Assembly (NCBI GenBank): GCA_034520885.1
Contig: JAXHNE010000004.1
Span: forward strand, 9,983 to 73,982
Length of the DNA stretch: 64,000 bases
Direction: 5' to 3'
DNA from: Candidatus Saccharimonadota bacterium
Lineage (GTDB): Bacteria > Patescibacteriota > Saccharimonadia > Saccharimonadales > JAXHNE01
Shown piece by piece: positions 25,909-41,553 of this stretch. The first letter of the stretch is position 1. The number at the start of each line of letters is the position of its first letter. The notes beneath the pieces are model-generated. The model ran no database searches. It was not told the origin of the DNA and saw only the letters and a list, made by a program, of their open reading frames with translations. Both the position numbers and the translations under genes were made by a program.

Positions 25909-25940
25909 GCAGCCGAGCAAGTAGGCTGCTTTTTAGTTTT
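25909..25940 (+). terminator. rho-independent terminator downstream of 16S
   Basis: gcagcc gagcaagta ggctgc followed by tttttagtttt. This implies 16S is transcribed separately from 23S. Confidence 0.6.
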
Positions 25941-26126: not shown

Positions 26127-26732
26127 CTAAACCTTTTCTGGCAATTCTTCACTATCAGCGGTGACACTTTCTGGAAATTCGTACTTAAACTTCAGTATCA
26201 TTTCAGTGAATTTCATAATGTCTTTTGCTTCGGTTTGGCCCATGATAATAATCTCATGGTTTGCATCATTGCCAAGCTCCCGTATTTTGTCGACCCACAC
26301 CTTACTATTCGGTGGTGTATAGTGGTTGTCAACCAAATAGTCCACATAGGCCACAAACTTCTTACCTTCGTTCGCGCCAGCTTCCACAGCTATGTGCATT
26401 AGTAGCTTTCTGCCTGCAAGCACCACTGACGTATATGCGTTGGCTGCTGTTGAGCGCCTCATTTCAGCATACAAGTCTTCGATGTCCTTCGGTAAGTGGT
26501 CTATCGTCTCGCCAAGCATTGGTGCAGGAACTTGCTCGTCGTTGGATATTTTTGATATCAAAGTTGGCCTGTTGCATGAATGGCATATGTATAAAAATGC
26601 AGTTGGTGCTCCTGATGGTTTTAGACATGAGTAGCCTACGTTAGATGTTATATCTGCACTGCAGTTACCGCACGTATAACGTCTACTTTCTATAGTATTG
26701 ATTTGTCTCCAAGTACCAGTATGTGCTTGCAT
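26127..26732 (-). CDS. Zn-ribbon + DUF4145-like protein, hypothetical (possible defence-associated)
   Basis: N-terminus: CGNC...CHSC. C-terminus: LMHIAVEAG...VDYLVDNHY...IRELGNDANHE, resembling the DUF4145 R-x-GN-x-aH signature. This is memory-based, with no search. Confidence 0.45.
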   Translation of the reverse strand: MQAHTGTWRQINTIESRRYTCGNCSADITSNVGYSCLKPSGAPTAFLYICHSCNRPTLISKISNDEQVPAPMLGETIDHLPKDIEDLYAEMRRSTAANAYTSVVLAGRKLLMHIAVEAGANEGKKFVAYVDYLVDNHYTPPNSKVWVDKIRELGNDANHEIIIMGQTEAKDIMKFTEMILKFKYEFPESVTADSEELPEKV

Positions 26733-26868
26733 AGTTTTTCCTTTGTATTAATTAAATTGCGATTTTAGTGTTTTTGCCCTCTCGAGTAATCCCACATTAC
26801 GCTGGCTACACCATACACCTTAGGTTTGCAAAAAGCAAGAAACATTGTATAGCCATAAGCAGTATAAA

Positions 26869-27156
26869 CTAGTATTCTAAGGGGTAGCGTGTTACGCAAT
26901 CTAGTTGTGCTGCGTGTTTTGCCAGGAAAACTTCTTCAGGAGTTCGATACGAGTAGATATCCTTGATGTTTGCATCACCCGACGTGGAAAATCGTTCATT
27001 AACTTGTTCGCTACACGCTTTGCTGAGCAAACGAATATGGTTGTCGCGGTCAGCTTTAGATTGTTCAGCCCTACTGTCATAAACACCAACACTAACAACA
27101 AATAGACTTATCGTTAAAATGGTTACCCAAGACATCACCAAGATTGTATTCTTCAT
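26869..27156 (-). CDS. small secreted/membrane protein, hypothetical
   Basis: The probable start is MKNTILVMSWVTILTISLFVVSVGVY (signal/TM). Confidence 0.3.
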   Translation of the reverse strand: MKNTILVMSWVTILTISLFVVSVGVYDSRAEQSKADRDNHIRLLSKACSEQVNERFSTSGDANIKDIYSYRTPEEVFLAKHAAQLDCVTRYPLEY

Positions 27157-27336
27157 GACCCAATCATAGCACAAGAGGACTATCAGAATTTTCATTGGAG
27201 GGGTGGTTTGTTTCGCTGTACAGCGAATTTCTTATGCTCAGAGACTTTTAAGTCACTAGTTAGTTGCGGTATTTACTACAACAACAGAACACGTAAATAA
27301 TTTACAAAATTGTAAAAAAATTGTATCATATGACTT

Positions 27337-27753
27337 ATGCGAAATTTTGAAGCTTTGTTAGGGCAAACAAAAGAGGAGATTGATTCCTTTATGATAGAGA
27401 ACGATGCAGATGGGTGTGTAGGATGCCCTATGGCTCGTTTAGCTGCGGCTGATGTACTTTGGAGGCGAAAGAATTGGAATAGTATGGAAAGTAGGCCAAG
27501 CATCTACAATGATTTGCTTGAAAAAAATGGCGCAGAACTCATAGAGAAAGAGCTAAAATTTAGTGGCTTGAGCGGTGCATGCGATGGTTACTCTGAAAGG
27601 TGGTCACCAGATACTCCGCGACCAGCAGGAATGTGCAATAGCAAAGACATGGAGTATTCAAGAATTGAGATTACAGCAGGCCGGATATTAGAGACCTTCG
27701 ACTGGGTCCTGCCACCTGCAGTAAAAACGCTCATTGGTATTCGCCAAAAGTAG
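27337..27753 (+). CDS. hypothetical protein (138 aa, several Cys)
   Basis: An open reading frame with no recognisable motif. Confidence 0.3.
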   Translation: MRNFEALLGQTKEEIDSFMIENDADGCVGCPMARLAAADVLWRRKNWNSMESRPSIYNDLLEKNGAELIEKELKFSGLSGACDGYSERWSPDTPRPAGMCNSKDMEYSRIEITAGRILETFDWVLPPAVKTLIGIRQK

Positions 27754-27792
27754 CTTTTTATGAGTTCGAGTGATACGTGGTTTGTAAATTTC

Positions 27793-28221
27793 TTATTCTA
27801 CTTTTTGGTAGAGTTGGTGGTCTTCAAGGCGAACTTTACCTTTTTGCCAGTCGTTTAGGGCCAAATCAAGGATGAGTGATATACCCCAATCTTTACCTTC
27901 TGGTGTGAATCTGTAAATCTCTGACGGGTGTAAGCCGGTGGCATCTTGCCATATTTTAGTTGGGTGTTCACCAATTTCTATGAGGGGTTCGTAACTAGTA
28001 TTATCTATGGACGAAGGTACATAAAGACCCCTCATTCTTTGCAATACTCGTCTTACACCAGAGGTGACGGAAGGAATATGGGGCTCAATTTCTGGAGCGG
28101 TGAGCGCAGGTTCAAGCTCAACTGTCTTAGCTGAAGCGACAGTTGTCAGTATGAATACTCTTCCCAGCCTGAGGTTTGCAGGCGCAAATTCAAAGCTGGC
28201 TTGTTCTGAACCACTAGTCAT
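27793..28221 (-). CDS. hypothetical protein (142 aa)
   Basis: An open reading frame with no recognisable motif. Confidence 0.3.
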   Translation of the reverse strand: MTSGSEQASFEFAPANLRLGRVFILTTVASAKTVELEPALTAPEIEPHIPSVTSGVRRVLQRMRGLYVPSSIDNTSYEPLIEIGEHPTKIWQDATGLHPSEIYRFTPEGKDWGISLILDLALNDWQKGKVRLEDHQLYQKVE

Positions 28222-28308
28222 TAGATGATTTTTTACTTTCTATTAAACTTAAGCAACCATGAGCGGCATGCCTTTCTATGGTTGATCGTGGTAAAATTTT
28301 TACAGATA

Positions 28309-28546
28309 AAAGAGGAAATACAAACATGGCACGACTACCGGTACCAGGAGGGGATGTCGGAAACTGGGGTGAGATTCTCAACAGTTATCTCAAAGTCTCG
28401 CATGACTCCGGTGGAGCCATTAAATCCGGTAGCGTTACCAACGGAATGTTGGCGGGTAGTATTGCGCAAAACAAAATCACCAACTTAACCAGTGACCTAG
28501 CGGACAAGTACGTTTTGCCAGGGGGTGGCGTACCAGAAGCCGATCT
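28309..28546 (+). repeat. copy 1 of a 238 bp exact direct repeat (RBS + first 74 codons of fibre gene A)
   Basis: It is identical to 30748-30985: aagaggaaatacaaacATGgcacgactaccggtaccagga...gaagccgatct. Confidence 0.9.
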
Positions 28547-29474
28547 GAGTTCCGCTGTGCAAACGAAGCTTAATGCTTCGACGGCCTGGGGCGGTATTAC
28601 CGGTACGCTTAGTGACCAAACTGATTTACAAACCGCATTGGACGCAAAATTTAACACGAGTAGCATTATTGATGATGACACATTTGCTACTGCGACCGCG
28701 AGCAATGTTGCCAGCGCCGAATCAACTAAAACCTATATAGATACGGAGGTAGCTGCAGTACAAAGCGATGTAGACGACTTGGAGGCCGCCCAAACGGAAA
28801 TCAATGCTTTGCCAGCTGGTACGACCCCTGATGGTACGGAAGAGTTTCCAGCAGATCAATCAGGAACAACGGTTAAATTTACTTTGGACGAAGTGGGGGA
28901 TTTACTATTCGGACGCGATATTACGATGACTCCCGGGGTAGATGGTCATATAAGTGTTGTTGACTCGTCGGGCGTACCCGAACTGGCTTTGCGGCAAAAC
29001 ACCGCTGACAGCAATGACGGTATTGTGCTTAGTTTCGCTTTCGGTCAACCGGCGATTAGTCTGGGTGCCGGTTCAGCGGCAGTCGATGTACTGCTGGTAA
29101 GGACGGATGCTGGAAAGCTGCGTATGTCGGCAAGCGGCGGTGCGGTTCCCGCTCTAGAGGCGCCGGTCACTAATCCTATCGTTTCCACAACGGTTGATCG
29201 TACGTTTGTGGGAGGTGATGTGGGTAAAATAGTAGAAGTAACACACGGTTCCACCGTGCGAACCCAAACTGTTCCACCCAACTCATCAGTAGCGTACCCA
29301 GTAGGCAGTAATCTATATGTGCGCAAAACAGGAACGGCTAACGTCGCTATTGCTGCGGGTTCCGGCGTGACTATTCGTGACCCGAACGCGCTGGGACTTA
29401 CCATCTCAACACAATATGAAACAAGACGTCTGATGAAGCGGGCCACAGACGAATGGGTAATGACTCGATTATGA
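28326..29474 (+). CDS. phage-tail-fibre-like protein A (constant N-terminal module, unique C-terminus)
   Basis: MARLPVPGGDVGNWGEILNSYLKVSHDSGG... is identical to protein B for 74 aa, then diverges. It contains FATATASNVASAESTKTYIDTEVAAV, a motif common in tail fibres, and a Gly/Ser/Thr/Val-rich beta-type C-terminus. There is no signal peptide. Confidence 0.6.
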   Translation: MARLPVPGGDVGNWGEILNSYLKVSHDSGGAIKSGSVTNGMLAGSIAQNKITNLTSDLADKYVLPGGGVPEADLSSAVQTKLNASTAWGGITGTLSDQTDLQTALDAKFNTSSIIDDDTFATATASNVASAESTKTYIDTEVAAVQSDVDDLEAAQTEINALPAGTTPDGTEEFPADQSGTTVKFTLDEVGDLLFGRDITMTPGVDGHISVVDSSGVPELALRQNTADSNDGIVLSFAFGQPAISLGAGSAAVDVLLVRTDAGKLRMSASGGAVPALEAPVTNPIVSTTVDRTFVGGDVGKIVEVTHGSTVRTQTVPPNSSVAYPVGSNLYVRKTGTANVAIAAGSGVTIRDPNALGLTISTQYETRRLMKRATDEWVMTRL

Positions 29475-30289
29475 CGTTATTCACAAATACCGGTGCCAAA
29501 ATCGTCTCAAACACAGGAGGTCCGCTCAGGAACCGCAATACCGCATTTGTTGATGCGTTTTCTCGCGCCGATAGTGCGTCATTGGGGAACGGCTGGATTG
29601 ATGGTCATGATTGGGACAACACCGCTTATGAACCACTGGGAATTTACAACAAAGCCGCAGTGGTATCAGATCCAACTGCTCGTGTCGGTGCAGATTATGC
29701 CGAAGACCAATTCGAAGCACACCCGCCATTAGACGGCAAGCAACATCAAGGTATTGGTTGTGCCTGGAGAGATATGGGCACCGAATCGGTGTATTTGGAA
29801 GTTGAGTGGAGTGGTCTTATGAGTATTAACGAAGGTCACCATGTGGAAGGCGCCCCCATAGTGCATGTTGTTCCGGGATCGCCCGAACATGGGCTTGGTA
29901 TTTGGCCTTCTGCTTTAAATGATTCGACGCCGTTATTCTTTATTGCGGGAATTGGCAACCCGCCCGAAGATTTCGGAAATTATATTTATGCCGTCGCGGG
30001 GTACTCACATACGGATGGTATGCCACGCAAGTTGGGGATTCAAACGAACGGGACGACCGCAACGTTTTGGCTTGATGGCCCTCCGGGGGTCGGGACACAA
30101 ATAAGTCTTAGTGGTTTTGGTGGCAGCCCCGCTTATGGTTTAAATCCTTTTCCAGTTCCGGCGAACCTGCAAAACTCGACTCTACACGGTTTTGAGCTAG
30201 ATACGCACTATGTATCTCCCCCTTATGCGCAATGGACGGATATTCCTGCCACTCCTGTCGTAAATAGCATTGTAATTAAGCCAAATTGA
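29453..30289 (+). CDS. hypothetical protein overlapping the 3' end of fibre gene A (partner/assembly or second fibre component)
   Basis: 278 aa. Its start overlaps the upstream gene by 22 nt (translational coupling). The composition is Gly/Pro/Trp-rich. Confidence 0.45.
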   Translation: MGNDSIMTLFTNTGAKIVSNTGGPLRNRNTAFVDAFSRADSASLGNGWIDGHDWDNTAYEPLGIYNKAAVVSDPTARVGADYAEDQFEAHPPLDGKQHQGIGCAWRDMGTESVYLEVEWSGLMSINEGHHVEGAPIVHVVPGSPEHGLGIWPSALNDSTPLFFIAGIGNPPEDFGNYIYAVAGYSHTDGMPRKLGIQTNGTTATFWLDGPPGVGTQISLSGFGGSPAYGLNPFPVPANLQNSTLHGFELDTHYVSPPYAQWTDIPATPVVNSIVIKPN

Positions 30290-30747
30290 TATTTTTGGCT
30301 TAGGGTAGTCACGCACACGTTAATCTTAAGCTACATTTTAATGAGAGGCTATTATTTTTTCACGCCGGAGTTATTTGAATCACCGAAGTTATATTGCGAA
30401 AAAGGGTTTATAGAAAAAATCTAGGGCACTAATCGTGTCCATTATGCCATGATACGGTCATGAAAAAAGATGTCCCAGATGTCCGGTTCAGTCAACTAAT
30501 CCGGAACAAACAAGCGTCCAAGTAGTTTTCGGGTGTCGTGAACAGGTTCGGCCTGTTCTGTCTTGCGGCCCATTCGTCCAGGATGGAACGCAAGTGCTTG
30601 GTGGGGATACAACCGTAGAGTTTTCTCATGTAGCGCTTCATGACTCCCGTACATATAAACCCAATATAGCGCATGACAGCTGAAGCAACCACGAAAAACG
30701 GTGCTTTTTTATACGTTAGCGTGTTAAAATTTAAGCGAACTATTAAA

Positions 30748-30985
30748 GAAGAGGAAATACAAACATGGCACGACTACCGGTACCAGGAGGGGATGTCGGA
30801 AACTGGGGTGAGATTCTCAACAGTTATCTCAAAGTCTCGCATGACTCCGGTGGAGCCATTAAATCCGGTAGCGTTACCAACGGAATGTTGGCGGGTAGTA
30901 TTGCGCAAAACAAAATCACCAACTTAACCAGTGACCTAGCGGACAAGTACGTTTTGCCAGGGGGTGGCGTACCAGAAGCCGATCT
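30748..30985 (+). repeat. copy 2 of the 238 bp exact direct repeat
   Basis: It is identical to 28309-28546. Confidence 0.9.
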
Positions 30986-31724
30986 TGATAGTTCCGTACA
31001 AACTAAATTAAACCAAGCTTCTACCCACATAGCAGATGGCACTGCTGCCCATGCTGCTTCAGCCATTGGCTTTACCCCTGCAGGCTCCATCAGTTCTACT
31101 GATGTGCAAGCCGCACTTACGGAGATTGATACGGACGTGACAGCCATTCCAGAAGCAGTCGCGGGGCGTATGATTACTATTACTCCAACCGGCAGTAACA
31201 CTTCACGCTTTGATGTCTTGCCGGGGGTTGCGAGGCGAGTTGGCATCGGAACTACCACTGGATTTATAAATAATCAAACGGGGCCATTTGATGTTTTTGA
31301 TCCGATTAACGTTACGGGCATGGTGCAAGGTGATGAATTGCATATTCAGGCAAATGGGTACTGGAAGAACAACTCCGGGAGTGCCGCATCACTTACGTTG
31401 TATGTTGCAGTGAACGCTACGACCATTGCCACCTTTGCCGCATCATCTATAGCAACTAATGCTACGAACCGAGCGTGGACGATTGACTTAAAAATGACGT
31501 GTGGCACATTCATCGGCGCAACACTATTCGGTGGGGGTATTAGCACCTTGGGGGCTACTGATAATTCACAAAGTGCCGAGCGAGTGTGGTCTCGCCGTGT
31601 CTCTCAAGCGTTTGATTACACGAACGACTTTACGGTCAATATCACGGCAGAACATGACGTTGCAGACGCCAATGTAGAAACTTGGGGAATCCGCGCAGCA
31701 ATTTATCATACGATTGGAACATGA
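30765..31724 (+). CDS. phage-tail-fibre-like protein B (same N-terminal module, different C-terminus)
   Basis: It has the same N-terminal 74 aa. THIADGTAAHAASAIGFTPAGSISSTDVQAALTEID is a classic tail-fibre motif. The C-terminus is unrelated to protein A. Confidence 0.6.
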   Translation: MARLPVPGGDVGNWGEILNSYLKVSHDSGGAIKSGSVTNGMLAGSIAQNKITNLTSDLADKYVLPGGGVPEADLDSSVQTKLNQASTHIADGTAAHAASAIGFTPAGSISSTDVQAALTEIDTDVTAIPEAVAGRMITITPTGSNTSRFDVLPGVARRVGIGTTTGFINNQTGPFDVFDPINVTGMVQGDELHIQANGYWKNNSGSAASLTLYVAVNATTIATFAASSIATNATNRAWTIDLKMTCGTFIGATLFGGGISTLGATDNSQSAERVWSRRVSQAFDYTNDFTVNITAEHDVADANVETWGIRAAIYHTIGT

Positions 31725-32974
31725 GTATATCTAATTTACGAAATGGTGGTGCGGGTTCAGGTCCACAGTGTTGGACGGCTCCGGATGGCACGGAGTACAC
31801 CGTGGTTATTATGAATGACTGGAACGCACTTGCATGTCGCAGGGCACCGGGACAGGCGTGGGAAACGTTTGATTTATCCACCATTTCAGGTAACCCACTC
31901 GGCTTACCAGTGGGTTCGGGTGACGCTCACAACAGGCTGGCAATTTGCCGCGACTCATCAGGATATATTCACATTGTCGGCAACACGCACGGCGAGCAAG
32001 TCATGCACTATATCAAATCTAATCAGCCGGATTCAATTGCAGGTGGTTTTAGTTCGGCAGCCGGTCTTATTGATTTAACTCCATCGTTTGAGGGCGTGGA
32101 CCCAGCTAATGCTGTGCGGGGTACGTACGACACATTCCTGCCTTTTACTAACGGTGTTATTGCCTGGTTGCGGGGGCAAAGAGATCAGCAATCCGTGCTT
32201 GGACGCGACTCTGTTTGTTACGTATTGAAACCCGGAGAAACTAACTGGCAACCGTGGGATGGTGTGGGAGATCTTATAAAGTGTGACAATACTGAAAACA
32301 ATGGTGACCCCGAGCGAGCCTACTGCCACGCTGTTACGGTACACAATGACACCTTGTGGGTTTCGGGTGTGTGGCAATGGGATGCAGTTGAATCAGGGGA
32401 GCCTGAAGTGGATGAAGGTCAAGACACGCGTCGTGAGCCGTTCATGATTAAATCTGACGATTTTTCGACCGCAATCATGAACAATAACATACCAACGTTC
32501 ACATCAGTAAGCGGGCAGACGGTTATCATGCCCATACTGGAGCCGGAATCAAAAGCAGTAACAGACTGCACAATACCGAACACGCTAGATCCGTCATTAC
32601 TAGGCGGTAACCTCGGTTTTGACAGCAATGACAACATTCATTTTACAGAGTCCGGGTATGTAAATGGGCGACATCACTGGTGGGACGGCAGCGCCTGGCA
32701 GCAGGAGGACGATAGTGAGCTTTTCGTTCCTTTTATTGGTCTCGTGCAAGCGAAAGGACAACTGCACCACTACAAAACCAGTGGTGGAAAGCTGAAAATT
32801 ACGAACCTAGAAACAAACGATTTCTTTTACTTGGGCTATGACGTTCCGGGTAATTTTAGTCCACTACCAGACCCTATTGCGCTAAGCAATGGGGTGCTAA
32901 AATTCTCCATTCCGGACGGTGATGCCCCGCAGACTTATTCATTTGGTACTGGTACAAGACTCAAAATACCTTGA
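31682..32974 (+). CDS. hypothetical secreted-type protein overlapping the 3' end of fibre gene B
   Basis: 430 aa. It overlaps the upstream gene by 43 nt. It is Trp/Asp/Gly-rich and unrelated to the gene-A partner. Confidence 0.45.
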   Translation: MGNPRSNLSYDWNMSISNLRNGGAGSGPQCWTAPDGTEYTVVIMNDWNALACRRAPGQAWETFDLSTISGNPLGLPVGSGDAHNRLAICRDSSGYIHIVGNTHGEQVMHYIKSNQPDSIAGGFSSAAGLIDLTPSFEGVDPANAVRGTYDTFLPFTNGVIAWLRGQRDQQSVLGRDSVCYVLKPGETNWQPWDGVGDLIKCDNTENNGDPERAYCHAVTVHNDTLWVSGVWQWDAVESGEPEVDEGQDTRREPFMIKSDDFSTAIMNNNIPTFTSVSGQTVIMPILEPESKAVTDCTIPNTLDPSLLGGNLGFDSNDNIHFTESGYVNGRHHWWDGSAWQQEDDSELFVPFIGLVQAKGQLHHYKTSGGKLKITNLETNDFFYLGYDVPGNFSPLPDPIALSNGVLKFSIPDGDAPQTYSFGTGTRLKIP

Positions 32975-32986
32975 ATAGTTTAGTCG

Positions 32987-34801
32987 CTAAGTGGTCTTGT
33001 TTTTTACGTCTTGCTGAGTCGGGCTTTGATCCGTTCCACGGTTTGATGATGGATAGAACAAAGTTCCCGGTTTGGGCCCTTGGTTGGGGGTTGAATCGTA
33101 AAGCTGCTGTTGTGCGTCTTGTGGGCTTGATAGATTATTATGTATGGAAGGCAGGGTATTTTGACCAACAGTGTGGCTGAGGAGGGTTGATTGCAGACGG
33201 CGCTTGCGCCGCAAAAAGTAGACACCTGAAGTCAATAGGGCGATACCCCCAAAAGCAGTAATAAATATCAATAGTGCGTTACTGTTGTCCGAAGGCGATG
33301 GTTGGCCTGGCTGGTCGCTGCTTTGGCCGCCGCTGGATGACCCGCTGCCATATGCTGGCTCATTTTTGGAGCTGTTGTTTTCGCTTGTGACCCCGTCTTC
33401 GTCCCGTGTCCCCGCGTCTTGATCGTTGTACGAGTACGAATTGCCACTTGACCCCGAACCGGTGCCACCCCCCGTATTACTCGTGTCAGTACCGTCGTCG
33501 GTCGAAGGGGAGGTGTTATCACCACCACCGCTTCCACCTCCTCCGTCATCGCTTGGTGGCGGGTCGGGGCAAGTTGGACCGGAGTCCGGATCTGGCTGCT
33601 GACCATCCGGACCAATAGTGTTGTTTTCTTCGCAGACATTCACTACGCTACTGTCGTCGTAAAACGCAAACCCGACCGCGTCAATGACCGAATTATTTTT
33701 CATGACAGCATCGCGAACCCGCCTGAGCTCGATGAGTTTCATGTTTCTGTTTTCCTGCGCCACGGTGTTATTTCCGGTAAAGTTAAAGCCTAAAACACTG
33801 TCCACGATTATGGTTCTTTCGGAGTTCGTACCATGTTGTCTGTTGGAGTCATTATCAATAAATCGATAGTTTCTGCGCTTGAACGAGCTGGCGTCTGATG
33901 GGTTAGCTTTATTGGGCGGGACGATATGGATCTTCATTGCCATGCCATCAAGCGTATTGTTATTAAATAATACATTTTCTATAACGGCATCAGCCCCGCC
34001 GTTAGCCAGAAAATTTAGTCGGGCCGGGCCAAAAAGGTTATTACGAAATGTTAGGTTTTGCATATTTGCACCGGCGTAGTTGGCTTCAAAATCTATCATC
34101 GATCGCCGCACTTGGCGCATATCGTTATTTTCGAATAACAGGTTAGAGCCGTCCACTATAGCTAGTCCTTGGCGTCCATTTTGCGCGAATGTACCATTCC
34201 TGACGGTTAAGCCGTCTCCACCGCTCATGTATACGAAATCGCCCCACACTTGATAGCCTTCCACGTTGCTTAGAACGGTGTTTTCAGAATCAATAATGTT
34301 GTAAGCGTGTTGTGCTTCCAGCTCCGCTATGTACTGACCGTCCGGACCTCCGTTAGAATTCGGACCACGTACCGTAAGATCTTTGATAGTAATATTCTGA
34401 CTATCACTCACAGTTATGTTTGAACGATTACGCGGCCAGTTATACGCGGGAAAATAATTGCTGGGTGGTGAGGTGTCGTGTCCGTCCGTGTACTGAACCA
34501 TCTCTGAGCCATTTCCATCTAGCGTAAGCCCGCTACGCTCAAGGATCAACAGCGGTAACTCAGCATGATAGCAAGCATTGTTGCCAAATTGCAGCGTGGA
34601 GCCATCGGGGGCGTCGTCAACCCAAGACTGTATCTCGCCTGTAACATCTTCGCTACAATCGTCGGCAATCGACCCCGGTATTGTAACTGTCGTTGCGGCT
34701 CTTGAACCGGTCAGTAAAATTGTCATGCTAACGGCAAACAAACATACGAATAAAGCTTTCACGTAAAACTGTTTTGAACGGTGTTTTTTTTGATTTGCCA
34801 T
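32987..34801 (-). CDS. right-handed parallel beta-helix (pectate-lyase/tailspike-like) protein with signal peptide, Gly/Ser-rich linker and C-terminal TM anchor
   Basis: It has an N-terminal signal (ALFVCLFAVSMTILLTGS). Beta-helix rungs: NITIKDLTVRGPN, GLAIVDGSNLLFENNDM, LTFRNNLF and IENVLFNNNTLDG. There is a GS-rich spacer, then TM LLIFITAFGGIALLTSGVYFL followed by RRKRR. Confidence 0.6.
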   Translation of the reverse strand: MANQKKHRSKQFYVKALFVCLFAVSMTILLTGSRAATTVTIPGSIADDCSEDVTGEIQSWVDDAPDGSTLQFGNNACYHAELPLLILERSGLTLDGNGSEMVQYTDGHDTSPPSNYFPAYNWPRNRSNITVSDSQNITIKDLTVRGPNSNGGPDGQYIAELEAQHAYNIIDSENTVLSNVEGYQVWGDFVYMSGGDGLTVRNGTFAQNGRQGLAIVDGSNLLFENNDMRQVRRSMIDFEANYAGANMQNLTFRNNLFGPARLNFLANGGADAVIENVLFNNNTLDGMAMKIHIVPPNKANPSDASSFKRRNYRFIDNDSNRQHGTNSERTIIVDSVLGFNFTGNNTVAQENRNMKLIELRRVRDAVMKNNSVIDAVGFAFYDDSSVVNVCEENNTIGPDGQQPDPDSGPTCPDPPPSDDGGGGSGGGDNTSPSTDDGTDTSNTGGGTGSGSSGNSYSYNDQDAGTRDEDGVTSENNSSKNEPAYGSGSSSGGQSSDQPGQPSPSDNSNALLIFITAFGGIALLTSGVYFLRRKRRLQSTLLSHTVGQNTLPSIHNNLSSPQDAQQQLYDSTPNQGPKPGTLFYPSSNRGTDQSPTQQDVKNKTT

Positions 34802-34954
34802 GGCGGGGTAGTTTTGCCGGCTCGGTTGCTACTTTTGCCGGCTAATTTATACTTGTGCGCCTATCTGTTAGCGTTGTGTTTTGATCTCCAGCCTATAGTA
34901 TAAAGCATGTAACCTATATGCCTAAACGTAACGGGGCAATTTGCATTAAATAAA

Positions 34955-34990
34955 AAACACCTCGTAGGGTGTTGGTCGTGATGGGCGACC
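34955..34990 (-). terminator. rho-independent terminator after the tRNA-Ala/tRNA-Ile unit
   Basis: Minus strand: acaccctacgaggtgt followed by tttttatttaat. Confidence 0.55.
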
Positions 34991-35095
34991 CGGGACTGGC
35001 CGAGTTATACGACACGGCACCGTATCGTATGATACGGTGAACCTCGCTATTAAATGTTCGCTTTGACTCGGGCGTTAGTGAAATTGAATTCTTGC

Positions 35096-35171
35096 TGGTG
35101 GGCGACCCAGGATTTGAACCTGGGACCTCTTCATTATCAGTGAAGCGCTCTAACCACTGAGCTAGCCGCCC
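35096..35171 (-). tRNA. tRNA-Ile (anticodon GAT)
   Basis: Minus strand: GGGCGGC/TA/GCTC-AGTGGTTA-GAGC/G/CTTCA-CTGATAA-TGAAG/AGGTC/CCAGG-TTCAAAT-CCTGG/GTCGCCC/A-CCA. Confidence 0.9.
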
Positions 35172-35227
35172 GCGTACTTTATTGTCTTCTTTCGCTAGGG
35201 CCTGCCATACGTAGCCTTGGCGAAGTA

Positions 35228-35304
35228 TGGTGGAGCGTCGGGGACTCGAACCCCGGACCCCCTGCTTGCAAAGCAGGTGCTCTAGCCAACTGAGCTAACG
35301 CCCC
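35228..35304 (-). tRNA. tRNA-Ala (anticodon TGC), G3:U70 present
   Basis: Minus strand: GGGGCGT/TA/GCTC-AGTTGGCTA-GAGC/A/CCTGC-TTTGCAA-GCAGG/GGGTC/CGGGG-TTCGAGT-CCCCG/ACGCTCC/A-CCA. Acceptor pair 3 is G:U, the alanine identity element. Confidence 0.9.
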
Positions 35305-35768
35305 TCAGGATAAGACTCGCGTTATTGTAACGGAAACCATCCAATAAAACAAGCTTCTAACAGGGAAGAAACAAGATATCCATTGTTTTTCCACGTGGGT
35401 GGATACTGGAATTTGTTCAAAATTACACCATGGGTGATATTTTATTGTTCAATACGTAATTCGAATATTTCCACCGAAATTTAATTTAAATTGTATTTAA
35501 ATTAAATTTTATGTAAAATAGATCTGTAGTAATTGAAAGAGTGCTTTGAGGGCAGTGTGAGAGCCCTTAAAGCAAACATTAAAAACATGGGTTCTGCGCT
35601 TGAGTGTAGTTTGTTAGTTCTTAGTGAGAAGCACAGCACGGCGTACTCATTGGTACGGTACGCGAGCATTACAACTAAAACTGGCAAAATACACCAAGAA
35701 CAGTAACCGGTTACAAGCTGTGCTTGATGAGCGGGTTACTGAAGCGCATAAGCCATGAAGGAGGGAAG

Positions 35769-35942
35769 ATGGGGACTTATAAGGCAGGCGAACAAAACCA
35801 ACGAGTTTTATCCAAAAATAACACTGGTACGTATACCGTAAGCGTGCCAATTGAAATGATCCGCCAGCTAAAATGGCAAGACGGACAACGGATAAACTTG
35901 GAAAAACGTGGCAAAACCATCGTCATAAGCGACTGGGAATAG
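35769..35942 (+). CDS. SpoVT/AbrB (MazE-like) swapped-hairpin DNA-binding protein
   Basis: MGTYKAGEQNQRVLSKNNTGTYTVSVPIEMIRQLKWQDGQRINLEKRGKTIVIS fits the AbrB/MazE pattern. The RBS aaggaggg is 5 nt upstream. Its stop is 1 nt before the NUDIX GTG start. Confidence 0.55.
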   Translation: MGTYKAGEQNQRVLSKNNTGTYTVSVPIEMIRQLKWQDGQRINLEKRGKTIVISDWE

Positions 35943-35943
35943 C

Positions 35944-36363
35944 GTGAAGGTCTACGGTGTTCGAGTAATTGTTAGAAAGGGTGACAAGTATCTGTTGGTG
36001 CAACATAATCAGACGCCGCAATATCCTGGCGATGTAAGGGACCCGGAAAAGCGTGGTCTCTGGAGCTTTCCTGGTGGCCATTTTGAAGGTGACGAATCGC
36101 CAGAACAAGCAGTAGTGCGCGAGCTGCAAGAGGAATTTAAGCTTGTGGTTAATCAAATTAGCTATGTCGGCGAGTTGTCGTATAAAAACAAGCTTTATAA
36201 AGTGTACTCAGCAAAAACAGATCAAGAGATAATCTATTTTGATGAAAAAGAAATAGAAGCCTATCGCTGGTTTAGTTTTGAAGATGTTAAAGATTTGACG
36301 CGTTCAGGCTTAGAGCACACAGGTTACGAGTACAGTTTGCTGCAGAGTGTCCACAATTCTTGA
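35944..36363 (+). CDS. NUDIX hydrolase
   Basis: PGGHFEGDESPEQAVVRELQEEFKL is the NUDIX box Gx5Ex7REUxEExGU. It has a GTG start. Confidence 0.7.
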   Translation: MKVYGVRVIVRKGDKYLLVQHNQTPQYPGDVRDPEKRGLWSFPGGHFEGDESPEQAVVRELQEEFKLVVNQISYVGELSYKNKLYKVYSAKTDQEIIYFDEKEIEAYRWFSFEDVKDLTRSGLEHTGYEYSLLQSVHNS

Positions 36364-36493
36364 AAAACCACCAACTCCCCAAGAAAGTTCAATACGAGAT
36401 GCAGCTAAGCAGCGCCACCCAAGCCGCAGAGACCTTGACTAACCCCTTCCAAAGCGAAGACTAAATTACATCAATTGTCGCCAGAATATGAGT

Positions 36494-36521
36494 TGACCTG
36501 ATCTGTTATTCTTGCTATTAT
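36494..36521 (+). promoter_or_regulatory. 23S-5S promoter (TTGACC-16-TATTAT)
   Basis: ttgacc tgatctgttattcttgc tattat, about 620 nt upstream of the 23S 5' end. Confidence 0.55.
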
Positions 36522-38239
36522 GACCGGGCTGCTTGAGTTTAAGTCATTAGATTTGACCTAAACCGCCAAGCTAAAAACGTAAACTCAAGCTAATAGAAGC
36601 AACGCAGCAAAGGAATTTTCTTTATGTGTGGGCTTGGGTCGTAACTTAACAAGTTGAATGAAATCAAGTAAAGATGATCCCTCACCTTTTCTGCTTTCGA
36701 GTAATCTATAACTAGATTACGAGAATGAACGAAAAAGTGAGTGGATGTAAGGCAAACGGCATAGTATTGGTTGCTAGCGCAACGGTTCAAAGTTGAAAGT
36801 TCTTAAAGTATAAAGTTATGAAACCCATACTTTTTACTTTTAAGTTTATAAACTTTGTAACTCAAGTTGGTAGTTACCAATAACTAGTCAATCCGCCTTT
36901 GCCCCTTTGGGGGCTATGGGCGGACTTGTCGAAACTCTTCGGAGTGGAGACGAGTTGCACATCAAATCAACTCACGTGATTGTGCTTGGATGCAATACAA
37001 GGAAGAAGCGAGTAACGCAGCGAGCCGTACTTAGGTACGGTGAGTGAGTAACACAGCTTCTGACGCAGTAGTGCGCCAAGAACAACAACAGGGTAGCGAG
37101 CTTTGCTCGTTAGCAGGTTGTTGTGACACAAACGCGTGAAACGTAAAAAGTTACTCAAGCGCGCACAACGGATGCCTTGACGTAAGATACCGACGAAGGA
37201 CGTGAGGAGCTGCGATAAGCTCCGGGGAGCTGCTTACTAAGCTTTGAACCGGAGATGTCCGAATGGGGAAACCCGATGGGAGTCATGTCTCATCACCATT
37301 ATCTGAATGTGGCCTCATCTGATGTCAAAATTTTTGATTGAGCGCACAGATCAGTTGTCTGAAACAGCGGAAAATTATTAAGACGTATGTGTATAATACG
37401 TCGAAAGAATTTTACACTGTTGTCAGTCGCTGCTATGCGTGCTCAACAGAATATTTTGGCATTAGATGAGGCCTGATAGGATAATAGGCGGTAAGCGGGG
37501 GAACTGAATCATCTTAGTACCCTGAGGAAGAGAAAGTAAACAACGATGCCGGTAGTAGTGGCGAGCGAACCCGGTAGAGCCCAAACCTTATTATGCTCCA
37601 GCTGTATCTCACTGCTGAAGCAAGCAACTAGCAAATAGAAACTAGCTAATACCTAGTTCCTGATTCCTGGTTTCTTGTCAGTAGCGAGATGCAGCCGGTA
37701 AGGCTGGTAGGCTAATGCATATAAGGGGTTGTGACACTACAAATATCCAAGACGGAGCACTAGATTTATCTAGCATTCCGTTTTGGCAGTCTGAGCTACC
37801 ACCATCAGGCACAAAGTAAGAAATTTGCCGAGCGAGCAGAATCCGCTGGAAAGAGAGCCAAAGAGCGTGAAAGCCGCGTATGCCAAGCGAAGCAAACTTT
37901 GTTTTTGTAGCGCTTGCGCTCTGCGCAAGCAAGTTGAAAGTTGAAAGTTCTTAAAGTATAAAGCAAGTGATTCCTACTACTTTATACTTGTTACTTTTTA
38001 ACTTTTGAACTTGCACGCGTGGAACGCGAGCATTTGTCGAGTAGATCGGAACACGAGAAACTCTGATTGAATCCGGAGGGACCACCCTCCAAGGCTAAAT
38101 ATATCTTACGATCGATAGAGAACTAGTACCGTGAGGGAAAGGTTAAAAGAACCCCGGGAGGGGAGTGAAATAGAACCTGAAATTGTGTGCGTACAAGGAG
38201 TCGGAGCCAATGCTTCGCATTGGCAAATTCGAAGCACGA

Positions 38240-38400
38240 AGTAACGAAATAGGAAACAAGCACGAAACAAGAAATAAGAAGCACGAAACAAGAAATAAGA
38301 AGCACGAAACCGAAGGGTTTAAAGTTTCTGATTTCAGATTTCAGATTTGTTTCAAATTTCAAAATTTCGGATTTCAGATTTGCTGATGCGGAGCATCAGG
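38240..38400. repeat. tandem repeats inside a 23S expansion segment: (aagcacgaaacaagaaataag)x2-3 then (atttcagattt) units
   Basis: caagcacgaaacaagaaataagaagcacgaaacaagaaataagaagcacgaaaccgaagg ... tttctgatttcagatttcagatttgtttcaaatttcaaaatttcggatttcagatttgctg. The two halves are mutually complementary (long hairpin). Confidence 0.75.
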
Positions 38401-39616
38401 TGACGGCGTGCTTTTTGTAGAACGATCCAGCGAGTTACTGATACACGCAAGCTTAAGTCAATTGACGGAGGCGCAGTGAAAGCGAGCCTGAATAGGGCGA
38501 ATTAGTGTGTATTAGTAGACCCGAAACCGAGTGATCTAACCATGGCCAGGTTGAAGCGCAGGTAATACTGCGTGGAGGACCGCACCAGGGAGCGCTGCAA
38601 AGCTCTTGGATGAGCTGTGGTTAGCGGTGAAATGCCAATCGAACTCGGAGATAGCTGGTTCTCCTCGAAATAGCTTTAGGGCTAGCGTCGTACGGTAGCA
38701 TGTGGGGGTAGAGCTCTGTTTCGGACTGGGGCGCGCAAGCGTACCCACCCTTGACAAACTACGAATACCATATGTGGAACTACGGCAGTTAGAACGGCGG
38801 GGCTAAGCTCGTCGCTCAAAAGGGAAACAGCCCAGACCATCATCTAAGGTCCCTAAGTCTATGCTAAGTGGGAAACGAGGTGAGATTTCTTAAACAACGA
38901 GGATGTTGGCTTAGAAGCAGCCATTCATTTAAAGAGTGCGTAACAGCTCACTCGTCAAGAGATCTCGCGCGGAAAATGTAACGGGGCTAAGCATAGCACC
39001 GAAGATATGGGCTTGTGCGTAGCACAAGCGAGTTAAAAGTTCGTAAAGTTAAAAGTTCGTAAAGTTTTGAATATTTTTCATTACTTTCGACTTGCTACTT
39101 TCAACTTTCGACTTGCTCGTGCTATGCATGAGCGGTAGAGGAGCGTTGATATTGCATTGAAGTCGAACTGCGAGGTTCGGTGGAGCGGTATCAAGTGAGA
39201 ATGCTGGAATGAGTAACCATAAGGCAGGTGAGAATCCTGCCCACCGAAAGAGCAAGGTTTCCTGGGCCACGGTAATCGTCCCAGGGTTAGTCGGTCCTAA
39301 GCCGAGGCGCGTAGCGTAGGCGATGGACAACGGGTTAATATTCCCGTACTAGTCTTACTTTGTTGTCAATGCGCGGCATGTTAGCCGGAGCGGGTTCATG
39401 GTTATACCCGTCTAAGGAGTGTAATAACTCCGAATGCGATCCGCCAGCCGGCGGAGAGTCCGGTGAGAGTGCTGACCAGAAAAGTTTGACAGCTTATGAG
39501 TATGGCTATCCGTACCGCAAACCAACACAGGTGCTCAGGTCGAGTAGACCAAGGTGTACGAGTGATTCTTCGTTAAGGAACTCGGCAATACAGCGACCGT
39601 AACTTCGGGATAAGGT

Positions 39617-39965
39617 CTCCCAGCCCTAGTTTTGGGCTTTATCCAGTCTCATATATCAGTATGGACTGCGATATACTGTTGCCATGTTCTTTGTTTACCT
39701 TTTGCAACATAACAAAACAAAGCAGATTTATATCGGCTATTCGGCCGATCTAAAACGCAGAGTTAGTGAGCATAATGCAAAAGGTAAGAAGTTTACGACC
39801 AAATCGAGCGGTCGTTGGCTTCTAAAATATTACGAAGCTTACGCGTCCGAGACAGACGCAAAGCTTCGCGAGCGTAAACTAAAGCAACATGGCAGCGCAA
39901 AGCACAAGTTAGTTGAGCGACTCGAAGAAAGTTTAACTCTTCGAGCCCAAAACTAGGGCTGGGCG
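39617..39965 (+). mobile_element. ~307 nt insertion in a 23S variable helix (E. coli ~1710-1750 region) bounded by 19-21 bp perfect inverted repeats and encoding a GIY-YIG protein
   Basis: IR1 ctcccagccctagttttgggc (39617-39637); IR2 gcccaaaactagggctggg (39945-39963). The flanking sequence CGTAACTTCGGGATAAGG ... GAACTGTTTACCAAAAACACAG matches conserved 23S. Confidence 0.7.
39684..39956 (+). CDS. GIY-YIG nuclease domain protein (homing-endonuclease-like)
   Basis: 90 aa: MFFVYLLQHNKTKQIYIGYSADLKRRVSEHN has the GIY...YIG motif with the conserved R and E. A basic C-terminal tail follows. Confidence 0.7.
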   Translation: MFFVYLLQHNKTKQIYIGYSADLKRRVSEHNAKGKKFTTKSSGRWLLKYYEAYASETDAKLRERKLKQHGSAKHKLVERLEESLTLRAQN

Positions 39966-40250
39966 CAGCTAAGGAGCCCACGGAACTGTTTACCAAAAAC
40001 ACAGGTCTCTGCTAACACGAAAGTGGATGTATAGGGGCTGACTCCTGCCCGGTGCTGGAAGGTTAAGGGGATCGCTTCACGGCGAGAACTGAAGCCCCAG
40101 TGAACGGCGGCGGTAACTATAACCGTCCTAAGGTAGCGAAATTCCTTGTCAGGTAAGTTCTGACCCGCACGAATGGAGCAATCATGTGGGCACTGTCTCA
40201 ACGAAGAGCTCGGTGAAAGTGCATTGGCGGTAAAGATGCCGTCTGTCCGC

Positions 40251-40282
<32 letters not shown>

Positions 40283-40642
40283 ACAATTTGACATTGTGCC
40301 GAGTTTTAACATGTGCAGGATAGGTGGGAGACTTTGAAGCCCCGACGCTAGTCGGGGTGGAGTCATCAGTGAAATACCACTCTTGTTAAAATTTTGTACT
40401 TACTTGAACCGTTATCCGGTTTGGGAACAGTGTCTGATGGGTAGTTTAACTGGGGCGGTTGCCTCCCAAAGAGTAGCGGAGGCGTTCAAAGGTCGGCTAA
40501 GTTCGGATGGAAATCGAACCGATAGTGCAAGCGCAGAAGCCGGCTTGACTGTGAGGAGTACATTCCAAACAGACACGAAAGTGGGAGCTAGTGACCCGTC
40601 GTATCAGCCATTAGGCTAATGAACGTGGGATCGACGACGCAC

Positions 40643-40674
<32 letters not shown>

Positions 40675-40706
40675 TATAGCGCCCAATAGTTCACATAGAC
40701 GGCGCT

Positions 40707-40741
<35 letters not shown>

Positions 40742-40755
40742 AGGGGGAGCACCTT

Positions 40756-40826
<71 letters not shown>

Positions 40827-41553
40827 TTATATCCGCTGTGGACGATAGGAAACTTGAGAGGATCGACTCCTAGTACGAGAGGACCGGAGTGGACGCACCG
40901 CTGGTGTACCAGTTGTTCTACCAAGGGCATTGCTGGGTAGCTATGTGCGGATCGGATAAGCGCTGAAAGCATATAAAGCACGAAGCCGACCTCAAGATTA
41001 GGTTTCCCCATGAGGACCGTGATAGACGATCACGTTGATAGGCGCAAGGTGGAAGCATCGTGAGATGTGGAGCCGAAGCGTACTAATAGTCCCATTGACT
41101 TTTTACGACCAGAACAGACACACCGTTCTTGAAAAGCCAGGCCAAGCCTGACTTTTCCAAGAACTTCTGGCGCATTGCACAGTTTTCACCTGTGGGACGC
41201 GTGAGTAGTATTTTCATACAACTCACTTGCGTTTCCTCGGCGATAAACTGCACACTGCATCCAGATGTGCCCGTTCTGGAATTGTTTGTGTGACTTGTTC
41301 CGTTAGAGTTAGGATTACTTGTAATCCGTTAGCTCTTTTCGGGATTGACTAGTTATTGGTGCTTTATCAGCACTGCCTGTCTACCGAAAGGTAGGTTTGC
41401 CTTAACAGTTCATCTTTATCCGTGCACTTTTAGTGGACATCGACTAGCGCTAGTCAGCGCGAGTTAAAAAGTTCATAAAGTTATAAAGTAAAAAGTACGT
41501 TTAAGACTTTTCGACTTTCGACTTTATGCTTTGGACTCGACGACTACCGTCGT

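Follow-up and report, generated by a model that had tools for sequence, protein, structure and literature searches.

Why does a 23S rRNA gene contain a gene for a predicted nuclease? The stretch of DNA analysed here (64,000 nucleotides of a Candidatus Saccharimonadota contig; hereafter, the window) carries a 23S rRNA gene at 37144..41107 on the + strand (Rfam RF02541, 2441.9 bits, model 1-2925). At 3964 nt it is longer than the 2925-position model by ~1 kb, an excess made up of several insertions. One of these holds an open reading frame (ORF) for a small GIY-YIG protein between the arms of an inverted repeat. We asked where this unit lies, what its ORF encodes, which relatives share it and where else its ends are found. 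On balance, we lean towards reading 39619-39963 as a mobile, ORF-bearing intervening sequence (IVS) that resembles the Ssn/hairpin-repeat modules and stands in place of the helix 63 (H63) hairpin.

A gene for a predicted nuclease at the position of helix 63

In the Rfam covariance-model alignment, a block of 319 nt remains unaligned in the loop of the hairpin that follows helix 62 (H62), at model ~1751-1780. The BLAST homology gap relative to E. coli rrlH spans E. coli 1703-1772, which is H63. The whole unit, 39619-39963 (345 bases), occupies the H63 position, and its parts and borders are as follows.

39595..39617, + strand: hairpin of H62, GACCGUAACUUCGGGAUAAGGUC, the last conserved rRNA 5' of the unit (Rfam alignment; E. 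coli ~1703)
39619..39638, + strand: 5' arm, CCCAGCCCTAGTTTTGGGCT (inverted-repeat search, 20/20 complementary)
39639..39671, + strand: window-specific spacer of ~34 nt, missing from relatives, with a small predicted hairpin CCAGTC...GGACTG at 39643-39668
39672..39677, + strand: -10-like hexamer TATACT, 6 nt 5' of the ATG, a candidate internal promoter
39684..39956, + strand: GIY-YIG ORF of 90 amino acids (aa) with an ATG start (Pfam PF01541); its last codons and TAG stop lie inside the 3' arm
39944..39963, + strand: 3' arm, AGCCCAAAACTAGGGCTGGG (inverted-repeat search, 20/20 complementary)
39964..39984, + strand: return of rRNA conservation, CGCAGCUAAGGAGCCCACGGA and then ACUGUUUACCAAAAACAC of H64 (Rfam alignment; BLAST to E. 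coli from 1772)

The inverted repeat is 20 nt long and 100% complementary, with an arm-to-arm distance of 305 nt, and the terminal stem of the unit comprises 20 Watson-Crick pairs and one G-U pair. Of the 305 nt between the arms, 45 precede the ATG and 260 (39684-39943) belong to the ORF, which continues for 13 nt inside the 3' arm. In four relatives that carry the unit (L001, L009, L010 and L012) the arm is followed directly by ATACTGTTGCC-ATG, without the spacer. Repeats of this quality are not expected by chance: when comparable 100-nt flanks were shuffled 410 times, no repeat scored higher than 11. The segment is also predicted to fold far better than its shuffles, with the arms paired (minimum free energy -150.7 kcal/mol, z=-10.7).

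The initial annotation of this locus had the coordinates, the repeat length (19-21 bp), the protein length and the helix right, as Rfam, BLAST and the inverted-repeat search agree, and the flanks that it expected to clamp the insert outside the rRNA fold do pair in the predicted fold. It also described the insertion as an extension of the native helix, and on this point we differ. Relatives that share the 22-nt H62 flank have a short hairpin there, for example GCCUCCUUCGGGAGGC; judged by these sequences, the unit replaces the whole native hairpin and does not lengthen it. Classical IVSs are likewise described as replacing a native hairpin (PMC4990558). The unit thus stands where a peripheral 23S hairpin would be (GCCUCCUUCGGGAGGC or GCCUUCUUAGAGAAGGC in relatives), and its complementary ends make a long stem, both as in IVSs. 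It also has the features by which GIY-YIG insertions of the candidate phyla radiation (CPR) are recognised: an insertion of at least 100 bp relative to E. coli, no match to an Rfam intron family and an ORF that matches PF01541.

The GIY-YIG identity of the ORF, proposed from the letters alone, is borne out by Pfam (PF01541, E=2.7e-14, 53.6 bits against a cut-off of 22.6). The AlphaFold model (pLDDT 78.5) has the expected beta-beta-alpha-beta-alpha core followed by a long C-terminal helix; this K/R-rich helix (residues 70-89) makes up the C-terminal third and is the basic tail noted at first. The GIY-YIG catalytic set Tyr, Tyr, Arg, His, Glu is intact (Y5, Y16, R26, H30, E51), and across 12 sequences these residues are invariant together with G18 and R62. 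At the same 23S site the ORF is intact in six lineages (the window together with L001-3, L009, L010, L011 and L012). The proteins of these H63 relatives are 68-75% identical to that of the window (71% for L012, labelled Ca. Saccharibacteria). Pairwise ratios of nonsynonymous to synonymous divergence (dN/dS) in the H63 group are 0.07-0.17, with dS >1 and synonymous sites saturated. Because the ORF is intact in six lineages, with low dN/dS and all catalytic residues kept, these comparisons identify it as a working gene under strong purifying selection, not a relic.

What kind of GIY-YIG protein is it? The top sequence and fold matches are the UPF0213 proteins BH0048 and EF2693 (1zg2, 1ywl) and the Slx1 nuclease domain (7cq2, 6seh). 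The match to 1zg2 has E=0.0018 by sequence (22 bits) and a Foldseek probability of 1.00, and the TM values of these matches are about 0.55-0.6. I-TevI comes 13th among the fold matches, with a probability of 0.51, and an NCBIfam 'group I intron endonuclease' model matches residues 3-39 weakly (E=9e-5, far below its cut-off). The 90 aa form a single domain plus the C-terminal helix, with no separate DNA-binding domain. Since the nearest folds are UPF0213 and Slx1, with I-TevI lower, the protein is, to judge from its sequence and modelled structure, a bare catalytic domain and not a modular homing endonuclease. The proposal of a homing-endonuclease-only element does not survive in its classical sense, because a catalytic domain of ~85 aa without a DNA-binding domain falls outside that definition. 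The unit also contains no recognised transposase (DDE, HUH, or serine or tyrosine recombinase), its sole ORF being the GIY-YIG domain.

We then compared relatives, ranked by identity over 400 nt on each side of H63. The closest by flanks, L132 (92/94% identical to the window), has an empty H63 hairpin, GCCUUCUUAGAGAAGGC. Written as DNA, the empty H63 site is GGUCUGCCUCCUUCGGGAGGCCGCAG (GGTCTGCCTCCTTCGGGAGGCCGCAG). L140 and L100 (flanks about 90% and 94-97% identical) carry ORF-less H63 expansions of ~200 nt, and L001, L002 and L009, in which the ORF is present, rank no higher than L132 in this comparison (86-87% and 91-96%). Among relatives with 82-97% identical flanks, H63 is therefore empty, expanded without an ORF, or occupied by a GIY-YIG unit, a sporadic presence that is typical of IVSs. 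Since flank-similar relatives differ in what H63 contains, the unit must have been gained or lost among close lineages. A presence/absence polymorphism of this kind had been suggested as a check on the locus, and it exists. ORF-less H63 expansions in the lineage of the window measure 130-365 nt. We considered them as decayed copies of the unit; a sensitive translated search with hidden Markov models found no GIY-YIG remnant in them and so does not support the idea.

The same arms and related proteins at non-homologous sites

If the inverted repeat were merely the stem of native H63, it should not be found elsewhere. We examined the arms first within H63. Over their 40 nt in total they are identical in five of six H63 lineages (L001-3, L009, L010, L012), while the ORF DNA is 67-79% identical. 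In L011 pairing is kept through two compensatory changes, one G-U pair and one bulge. The arms are thus conserved as sequence and not just as a stem.

Near-identical arms lie in RNase P RNA genes (L013-15, L017 and L018) and also in L008, L016, L019 and solo hairpins. In L013-L015 and L017 the ORF is flanked by TCCAGCCCCAGTTTTAGGT, which resembles CCCAGCCCTAGTTTTGGGCT, and Rfam RF00010 spans the unit with E values of 3e-8 to 3e-26. In L008 the ORF lies upstream of glmS and is flanked by CCCAGCCCTAGTTTTAAGGT, again resembling CCCAGCCCTAGTTTTGGGCT; L016, L018 and L019 have related arms. These arm-sharing RNase P and L008 loci also encode the closest proteins outside H63, at 52-60% identity. Terminal inverted repeats common to copies at unrelated sites are a hallmark of insertion sequences (ISs) and miniature inverted-repeat transposable elements, and this family has them. 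ORF-less solo hairpins with the same arms (CCCAGCTCCAGTTTTG...CAAAACTGGAGCTGGG) and loops of 25-37 nt occur in L013, twice in L016 and in L018; that of L013 occupies the P18 position of its RNase P RNA. By sequence, they look like miniature derivatives of the unit.

Solo hairpins, by arm match: L013 4327-4397; L016 4329-4383 and 5981-6035; L018 3745-3815

Since homologues in RNase P RNA and between genes have this arm on their flanks, and the solo hairpins have it too, at least the inner ~14 bp of the repeat come with the insert; most of the repeat belongs to it and not to the rRNA. For these inner pairs we reject the native H63 stem as the source of the repeat.

To see how far such units extend, we collected 80 loci in a one-genome-per-species scan with two peptide patterns from the H63 clade, and the H62 flank retrieved 120 more 23S fragments from metagenomes; where rRNA contigs come from metagenome bins, their taxon labels may be wrong. 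The family is large, with 1150 proteins at E<=1e-5 when the Paracoccus copy is the query and 2361 cluster representatives at E<=1e-3 with the protein of the window. Most members have 80-95 aa, and many come from contigs of 0.5-2 kb, as is usual for fragmented rRNA assemblies. A flanking inverted repeat scores at least 12 in 54 of 82 distinct loci and at least 19 in 24 of them; none of the 410 shuffles reached 12. The arms differ between clades around a common core, (C)CC[ACT]GCACCTA or CCCC[AC]CACC. At every family locus with a host gene, that gene is on the strand of the ORF. The sites are these.

23S, E. coli 268: L024, L028-30, L083
23S, 540 (H25): L026/27 (Cloacimonadales); L034 (Paracoccus isoporae DSM 22220), 3129-3416; L043; L213 (4.9-Mb genome); L214-L217; P0066; P0042; and 9/120 metagenome fragments (L118, L160, L169, L176, L182, L184, L186, L189, L198)
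23S, 1163 (H45): L038; L067 (Bellilinea)
23S, 1703 (H63): the clade of the window; L021 (Verrucomicrobia); a second copy in L024
23S, 1854 (H68): L032, L044, L045 (Acidobacteria)
16S, 66-69: L049, L054, L073
16S, 1126: L035
16S, 1408: L059
RNase P RNA: L013 3729-4425; L014 3732-4359; L015 3742-4358; L017 864-1492; L040 3984-4559; L050 1471-2132; L061
tRNA leaders (about 4250-4340 in most): L023, L039, L042, L063, L071, L072, L078, L082, L086
Pilin-fusion loci: L218 1472-1770; L221/L222 779-1070
Pilin-fusion proteins: P0151, P0161, P0162, P0171, P0177, P0179, P0186, P0198, P0229, P0241

Two 23S genes carry two units each: that of L024 (Moranbacteria) at 1338-1630 and 3575-3866, sites 268 and H63, and that of L021 (Verrucomicrobia) at 2539-2802 and 3977-4256, H25 and H63. 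Protein clades follow the insertion site, those of H63, 23S:268, 23S:1854 and H25 each being coherent, and the H63 clade is monophyletic and sister to the RNase P clade. The H25 clade is found in bacteria outside the CPR, among them the named culture-collection strain Paracoccus isoporae DSM 22220; P0066 comes from a 4.9-Mb genome, and P0042 is present in 110 assemblies, including a TARA ocean sample. L060, from the isolate genome of Lacimicrobium alkaliphilum X13M-12, consists of a unit alone on a 290-bp contig, which suggests a repeat or rRNA-operon heterogeneity that broke the assembly.

Outside the rRNAs, units occupy two sites in RNase P RNA. One is the P3 position, directly 5' of GAGGAAAGUCC (L040, L050, L061). 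The other lies ~190 nt after GAGGAAAGUCC (L013-15, L017, L018), and we take it to be P13/P14 by comparison with the E. coli RNA. In nine loci a tRNA gene of the same orientation begins 0-15 nt 3' of the unit, with its 5' end overlapped by the 3' arm. Many of the remaining loci are cistron junctions, where the upstream stop codon abuts the 5' arm and the next gene takes its GTG or ATG from the last bases of the 3' arm. One free-standing small GIY-YIG gene, P0009, lies between ftsE and ftsX and has the flanking repeat CGCACATACCTTTA/TAAAGGTATGTGCG. The rRNA loop, first proposed as a safe harbour, is only one of several host contexts.

Units also occur in protein-coding genes. About 20 of the best 150 relatives are proteins of 210-290 aa in which a GIY-YIG domain and a type IV pilin-like protein share one reading frame; the former stands where the pilin leader peptide would be and leaves the prepilin-peptidase site intact (..KSGAG/FTLIELL, ..KNGAG/FTLIETI; the slash marks cleavage), with the 'GAG' of the site encoded by the 3' repeat arm. 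In L218 the former leader persists as a 40-aa ORF before the unit, and a gene for prepilin peptidase is found 1 kb upstream. This arrangement suggests that prepilin peptidase would release the nuclease from the fusions.

Several of these sites keep traces of insertion. The unit in the pilin gene of L218 has a target duplication, GGATTTAC, on both sides; duplications of TGAA or TTGA occur at cistron junctions; and those at tRNA 5' ends measure 7-10 nt, a second copy of 8-10 nt of the tRNA 5' end preceding the unit in L023, L071 and L072. Duplications of this kind, at some non-RNA sites, are a sign of genuine insertion.

How would the ORF be expressed from such different places? TATACT or TATAAT is conserved before the ATG in all 6 H63 lineages. 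Across the family, 21 of 82 loci match TATAAT in at least 5/6 positions 5-8 nt (mostly 6) before the ATG, against 1.5 expected, and these include all RNase P P13/P14 copies. Other clades have a plain GGAGG (L026) or no signal at all. A generic scan of 39300-40300 found no sigma-70 two-hexamer promoter, hence no -35, and no intrinsic terminator, and there is no Shine-Dalgarno sequence before the ORF ATG, though the 16S 3' end has a normal anti-Shine-Dalgarno CCUCCU. Given its spacing, a transcript initiated from the -10-like box would be leaderless, beginning at the A of the AUG or a neighbouring nucleotide; alternatively, the motif might function within the RNA. The predicted fold pairs the start-codon region, 39678-39706 (UUGCCAUGUU), with the codons of the conserved KQHGS motif, 39884-39905 (AACAUGGCA), and such pairing could limit translation from a full-length precursor.

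A proposed mobile cassette and its alternatives

These observations suggest how a mobile IVS in H63 might work. In the rRNA precursor the arms would pair into a helix of ~21 bp, holding the 305-nt loop outside the ribosome fold. By analogy with classical IVSs, a helix of ~21 bp would have the size of an RNase III substrate. The insert would then be either excised, leaving a fragmented 23S rRNA, or tolerated on the surface. H63 is a surface helix and the site of a eukaryotic expansion segment (ES27L), and retention would for that reason probably be tolerated. Synthesis of the nuclease could use either the processed precursor or a leaderless transcript initiated by the conserved -10 box, which lies 6 nt 5' of the AUG. 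At the DNA level it may, by analogy with Ssn, act on its own hairpin-forming ends or on hairpin targets and so drive insertion or maintenance. We infer that the units of the family are cassettes spreading between hairpin tips and gene junctions.

Of the two options in the initial annotation, the minimal mobile insertion in a tolerant loop fits much better than the passive ORF-carrying expansion segment, because H63 is empty in L132, the ORF is under purifying selection and the unit is found at many non-homologous sites.

Several results weigh against this reading. The 64-kb window holds no further copy of the unit and no solo hairpin elsewhere, and hosts that clearly differ from one another yielded no near-identical copies. 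Monophyly of the H63 clade, with dS saturated, would allow the unit to have been inherited vertically at this site for a long time. There is no target duplication at rRNA or RNase P sites, and duplications elsewhere vary from 2 to 8 bp with no fixed length; variable length, and none at RNA-gene sites, make a poor fit to a standard fixed-stagger transposase. To our knowledge, transposase activity has not been demonstrated for any GIY-YIG protein. The outermost CCC/GGG pairs of the arms resemble native stems (H63, RNase P P3, tRNA 5' ends), and ORF-less H63 expansions in relatives, though without a nuclease remnant, also start with GCCCCCAC...; part of the shared arm motif may for these reasons be convergence. 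The pattern HGTCWY..YYVSBRH..WNVSBRG..RNCYNB of the SRM, the repeat of the Ssn system, adjoins no family ORF in a regular-expression scan of all loci. A motif scan found no RNase III signature in the window, which says little for 64 kb. Finally, our pattern-based sampling biases the proportions of the contexts listed above. We did not use the G-U content of the stems (6.9% after extension) to tell DNA-level from RNA-level constraint, since it is biased by the way in which stems are found.

The main rival is a classical free-standing homing endonuclease gene within an IVS, which would cut the empty H63 duplex site-specifically and be copied in by repair, with the inverted repeat serving at the RNA level only, for insulation or RNase III excision. 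We judge this unlikely, though serious. The coherent site-specific protein clades speak for it, as do the H63 units of L024 and L021, which have related arms and exactly the same junctions, ...GG(U/C)(C/U)/ and /CGCAG (the slash marks the junction), a pattern that homing into a conserved site would give; so do the weak NCBIfam match to group I intron endonucleases and the missing target duplications at RNA-gene sites, the latter as expected. Yet the protein is a catalytic domain of about 85-90 aa without a DNA-binding domain, nearer to UPF0213/Slx1 than to I-TevI; its arms are conserved in sequence beyond what pairing would need; target duplications flank the units at pilin and cistron sites; and the same arms accompany sister proteins at non-homologous sites (RNase P RNA, intergenic, H68), which homing between alleles cannot yield. 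Homing thus explains the site-specific clades and not the shared ends at unrelated sites.

A second rival, which we consider improbable, is an immobile, vertically inherited H63 expansion whose nuclease has been domesticated for the host, for instance in DNA repair or in the control of recombination or transformation as proposed for Ssn, with the rRNA gene supplying strong transcription. Purifying selection with saturated dS would then reflect long-term retention, and the monophyly of the H63 clade agrees with it. Within this lineage, H63 accommodates ORF-less expansions of 130-365 nt, free-standing small GIY-YIG genes such as P0009 are common in cells, and SsnA of N. meningitidis has a host-level role in transformation (PMC11893778). 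Against this, the flanks of L132, where H63 is empty, are nearer to those of the window than are the flanks of relatives with the ORF; the unit recurs in many RNAs and many phyla, twice in one 23S; solo hairpins and target duplications exist; and even P0009 has its flanking repeat.

That the insert is an intron with an endonuclease ORF, whether self-splicing or enzyme-spliced (group I, group II or archaeal bulge-helix-bulge), seems to us very improbable, in spite of the group-II-like LAGLIDADG insertion in the 16S gene of the same window. The initial annotation had already set it apart from canonical group I and II introns, and covariance-model searches uphold this. A permissive scan of 39560-40020 with all 4227 Rfam families returned nothing from an intron family at E<=10; its matches were the LSU model and two that are attributable to chance. 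We rejected a group I intron because the covariance models find no P3-P9 core and too little non-coding RNA is left for a ribozyme; more than about 200 nt would be needed outside or overlapping the ORF, and the stem encloses 45 nt of non-coding sequence, all before the ORF and 0 nt after it. A group II intron was rejected because no D1-D6 match, D5 included, falls in 39560-40020. The site, moreover, is a variable hairpin tip and not the conserved core, and all 30 GIY-YIG ORFs of Tsurumaki et al. lie in insertions that resemble neither intron class (PMC11270868).

A decaying relic or chance ORF in a structured expansion segment, for which the missing Shine-Dalgarno sequence and the paired start codon might be cited, is already refuted by the Pfam match (E=2.7e-14), the dN/dS of 0.07-0.17, the invariant catalytic residues and an ORF that, where a relic would be frameshifted in relatives, is intact in six lineages.

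Returning to the mobile IVS, we tentatively extend it to the family as a whole, with less confidence than we would need to call it probable: the units may be widespread autonomous mini-elements, and the live progenitors of classical ORF-less rRNA IVSs. Each would consist of ~300 bp with terminal inverted repeats of 15-22 bp and an Ssn-like, domain-only GIY-YIG nuclease. Their targets would be hairpin tips and processing sites of highly expressed genes, namely rRNA helices including H25 and H45, RNase P RNA, tRNA 5' leaders, cistron junctions and pilin leader peptides. Host processing (by RNase III, RNase P, translational coupling or prepilin peptidase) would make them harmless and at the same time give them expression.

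Known systems and the rest of the window

The element itself is ordinary for a CPR bacterium and belongs to a kind already catalogued. Tsurumaki et al. (2024) list GIY-YIG ORFs in non-intron CPR rRNA insertions, 15 in 16S and 15 in 23S, and describe them as sparse, with no concentration at particular sites, and as unlikely to have spread by homing (PMC11270868). As cited there, the first report of such ORFs is Brown et al. 2015, to which the same paper also credits the observation that CPR rRNA insertions are absent from transcripts. The unit of the window falls in that category (at least 100 bp, not intron-like, in 23S, Pfam GIY-YIG). The catalogue omits terminal repeats, sharing between sites, site-specific clades, copies outside rRNA or the CPR, and the link to Ssn (PMC11270868).

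The S23p IVSs of Coxiella burnetii and Leptospira provide the closest comparison in layout. Like the unit of the window, they are inserts of 0.3-0.45 kb that replace the small loop of a peripheral 23S helix, with complementary termini (a stem of 20-28 bp), a small ORF and a sporadic distribution among relatives. RNase III excises the Coxiella IVS, whose ORF is enclosed by a 28-bp terminal stem (Warrier et al. 2016, PMC4990558), and likewise the IVSs of Leptospira and Salmonella (PMC4990558). They differ in that the ORF of the window is a selected GIY-YIG nuclease gene, whereas that of Coxiella is a decaying, apparently untranslated four-helix S23p. The site also differs, H63 here against H25, H45 or H9 in classical IVSs, and RNase III excision has been demonstrated for Coxiella. 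Relatives of the unit, however, do sit in the classical IVS helices H25 and H45.

Ssn is a 94-aa single-domain GIY-YIG protein that binds a hairpin repeat and cuts single-stranded DNA beside it (Chenal et al. 2025, PMC11893778), and ssn genes are flanked by hairpin repeats in a layout called 'identical to IS architecture' (PMC11893778). The unit shares with it a single GIY-YIG domain of about 90 aa, bracketing by inverted repeats, the IS-like layout and, in L013, L016 and L018 but not in the window, solo copies of the repeat, and its outer arm, CCAGCAC/GTGCTGG, is near the SRM stem pattern YYVSBRH/WNVSBRG. An ssn gene, however, has a complete 28-nt hairpin on each flank, whereas here a single hairpin is split between the two flanks and its loop holds the gene; rRNA is not mentioned anywhere in the Ssn paper (PMC11893778). 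Across all loci, about 2 Mb, there are 12 distinct SRM sites, none adjacent to a family ORF. No fetched locus contained an SRM-flanked ssn gene, and tblastn of two queries against plasmids gave no match linking the protein to a bona fide Ssn. Going by sequence and analogy, we would call the unit Ssn-like in layout and do not file it as a member of Ssn. Canonical Neisseria-type NTS/SRM repeats (for example TGTCATTCCCGCGAAAGCGGGAATCCAG) do occur in loci labelled CPR (L037 at 2711; L038 at 1279 and 1330; L091 at 2254) and Pseudomonadales (L059 at 4159), not beside GIY-YIG ORFs, which suggests a separate Ssn/SRM system in the same organisms.

Other comparisons are more distant. I-TevI and the T4 Seg proteins also combine a GIY-YIG catalytic domain with a selfish ORF in or between genes, and the clades of this family are similarly site-specific; enzymes of the I-TevI type, however, are about 245 aa long, include a linker as well as a DNA-binding domain, and as a rule reside in self-splicing introns, whereas here the catalytic domain stands alone. 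The IS200/IS605 elements and the REP/RAYT system resemble the family in having a small nuclease gene, hairpin repeats and scattered ORF-less copies, with a single-strand DNA mechanism proposed (PMC11893778); they differ in using HUH/Y1 transposases, subterminal hairpins and no known preference for stable-RNA genes. UPF0213 (BH0048, EF2693) and Slx1 are the best matches in sequence and fold, if weak ones, but they are proteins of the cell for which neither flanking repeats nor a location inside RNA genes has been reported.

What appears to be undescribed are the properties of the family. A literature search, which is weak evidence with most subscription journals outside it, found no paper on the terminal repeats or their sharing between sites, on copies in RNase P RNA, tRNA leaders or pilin genes, on copies in the classical IVS helices of non-CPR bacteria, or on solo hairpins or the Ssn link. 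The origin of IVSs has been an open question since 1990. For bacterial rRNA it is still called unclear, the hypotheses being remnants of transposition or mobile elements whose ORF provides mobility (PMC4990558). The family offers IVS-shaped units with an intact, selected nuclease gene, shared ends, solo derivatives and copies in H25 and H45, and may be the active form of rRNA intervening sequences. Because its hosts include non-CPR bacteria such as Paracoccus isoporae DSM 22220, and one copy is present in 110 assemblies, this hypothesis is directly testable. The family also joins two literatures that do not cite each other, on CPR rRNA insertions and on Ssn/hairpin-repeat nucleases. A selfish gene housed in RNase P RNA, or one that replaces a pilin leader in frame, would represent a new type of safe harbour. 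On the practical side, inserts of this sort disrupt rRNA assembly and gene prediction.

The rRNA genes of the window have further irregularities. Upstream of H63, within 37144-39100, the 23S gene contains other ORF-less expansions: +169 nt near model 170, +125 near 283, about +80 near 312, +142 near 370 and about +190 at H25. The GIY-YIG arms are in none of them. The +169-nt expansion, at 37311-37473, contains a 44-nt inverted repeat of its own, 77% complementary.

The 16S gene is interrupted at ~E. coli 1397 by an insertion of ~0.87 kb (24688-25560 region), which combines a group-II D1-D4 match at 24953-25034 with a LAGLIDADG_1 ORF at 25043-25504 (E=2e-24). The site matches the known CPR insertion site at position 1400; together with L012, labelled Ca. 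Saccharibacteria and with a 71% identical protein in the same H63 position, this CPR-typical insertion points to a CPR host. The 16S 3' exon resumes at ~25512, and the gene ends near 25650 with the anti-Shine-Dalgarno CCUCCU; since this exon lies beyond the insertion, the Rfam 16S end at 24735 is wrong. Between the 16S and 23S genes (25650-37144) lie ~11.5 kb with protein genes (DUF4145, BNR_4, Beta_helix, NUDIX and several without a Pfam match), so the two rRNA genes are unlinked. The same interval contains two tRNAs on the opposite strand, at 35099-35304.

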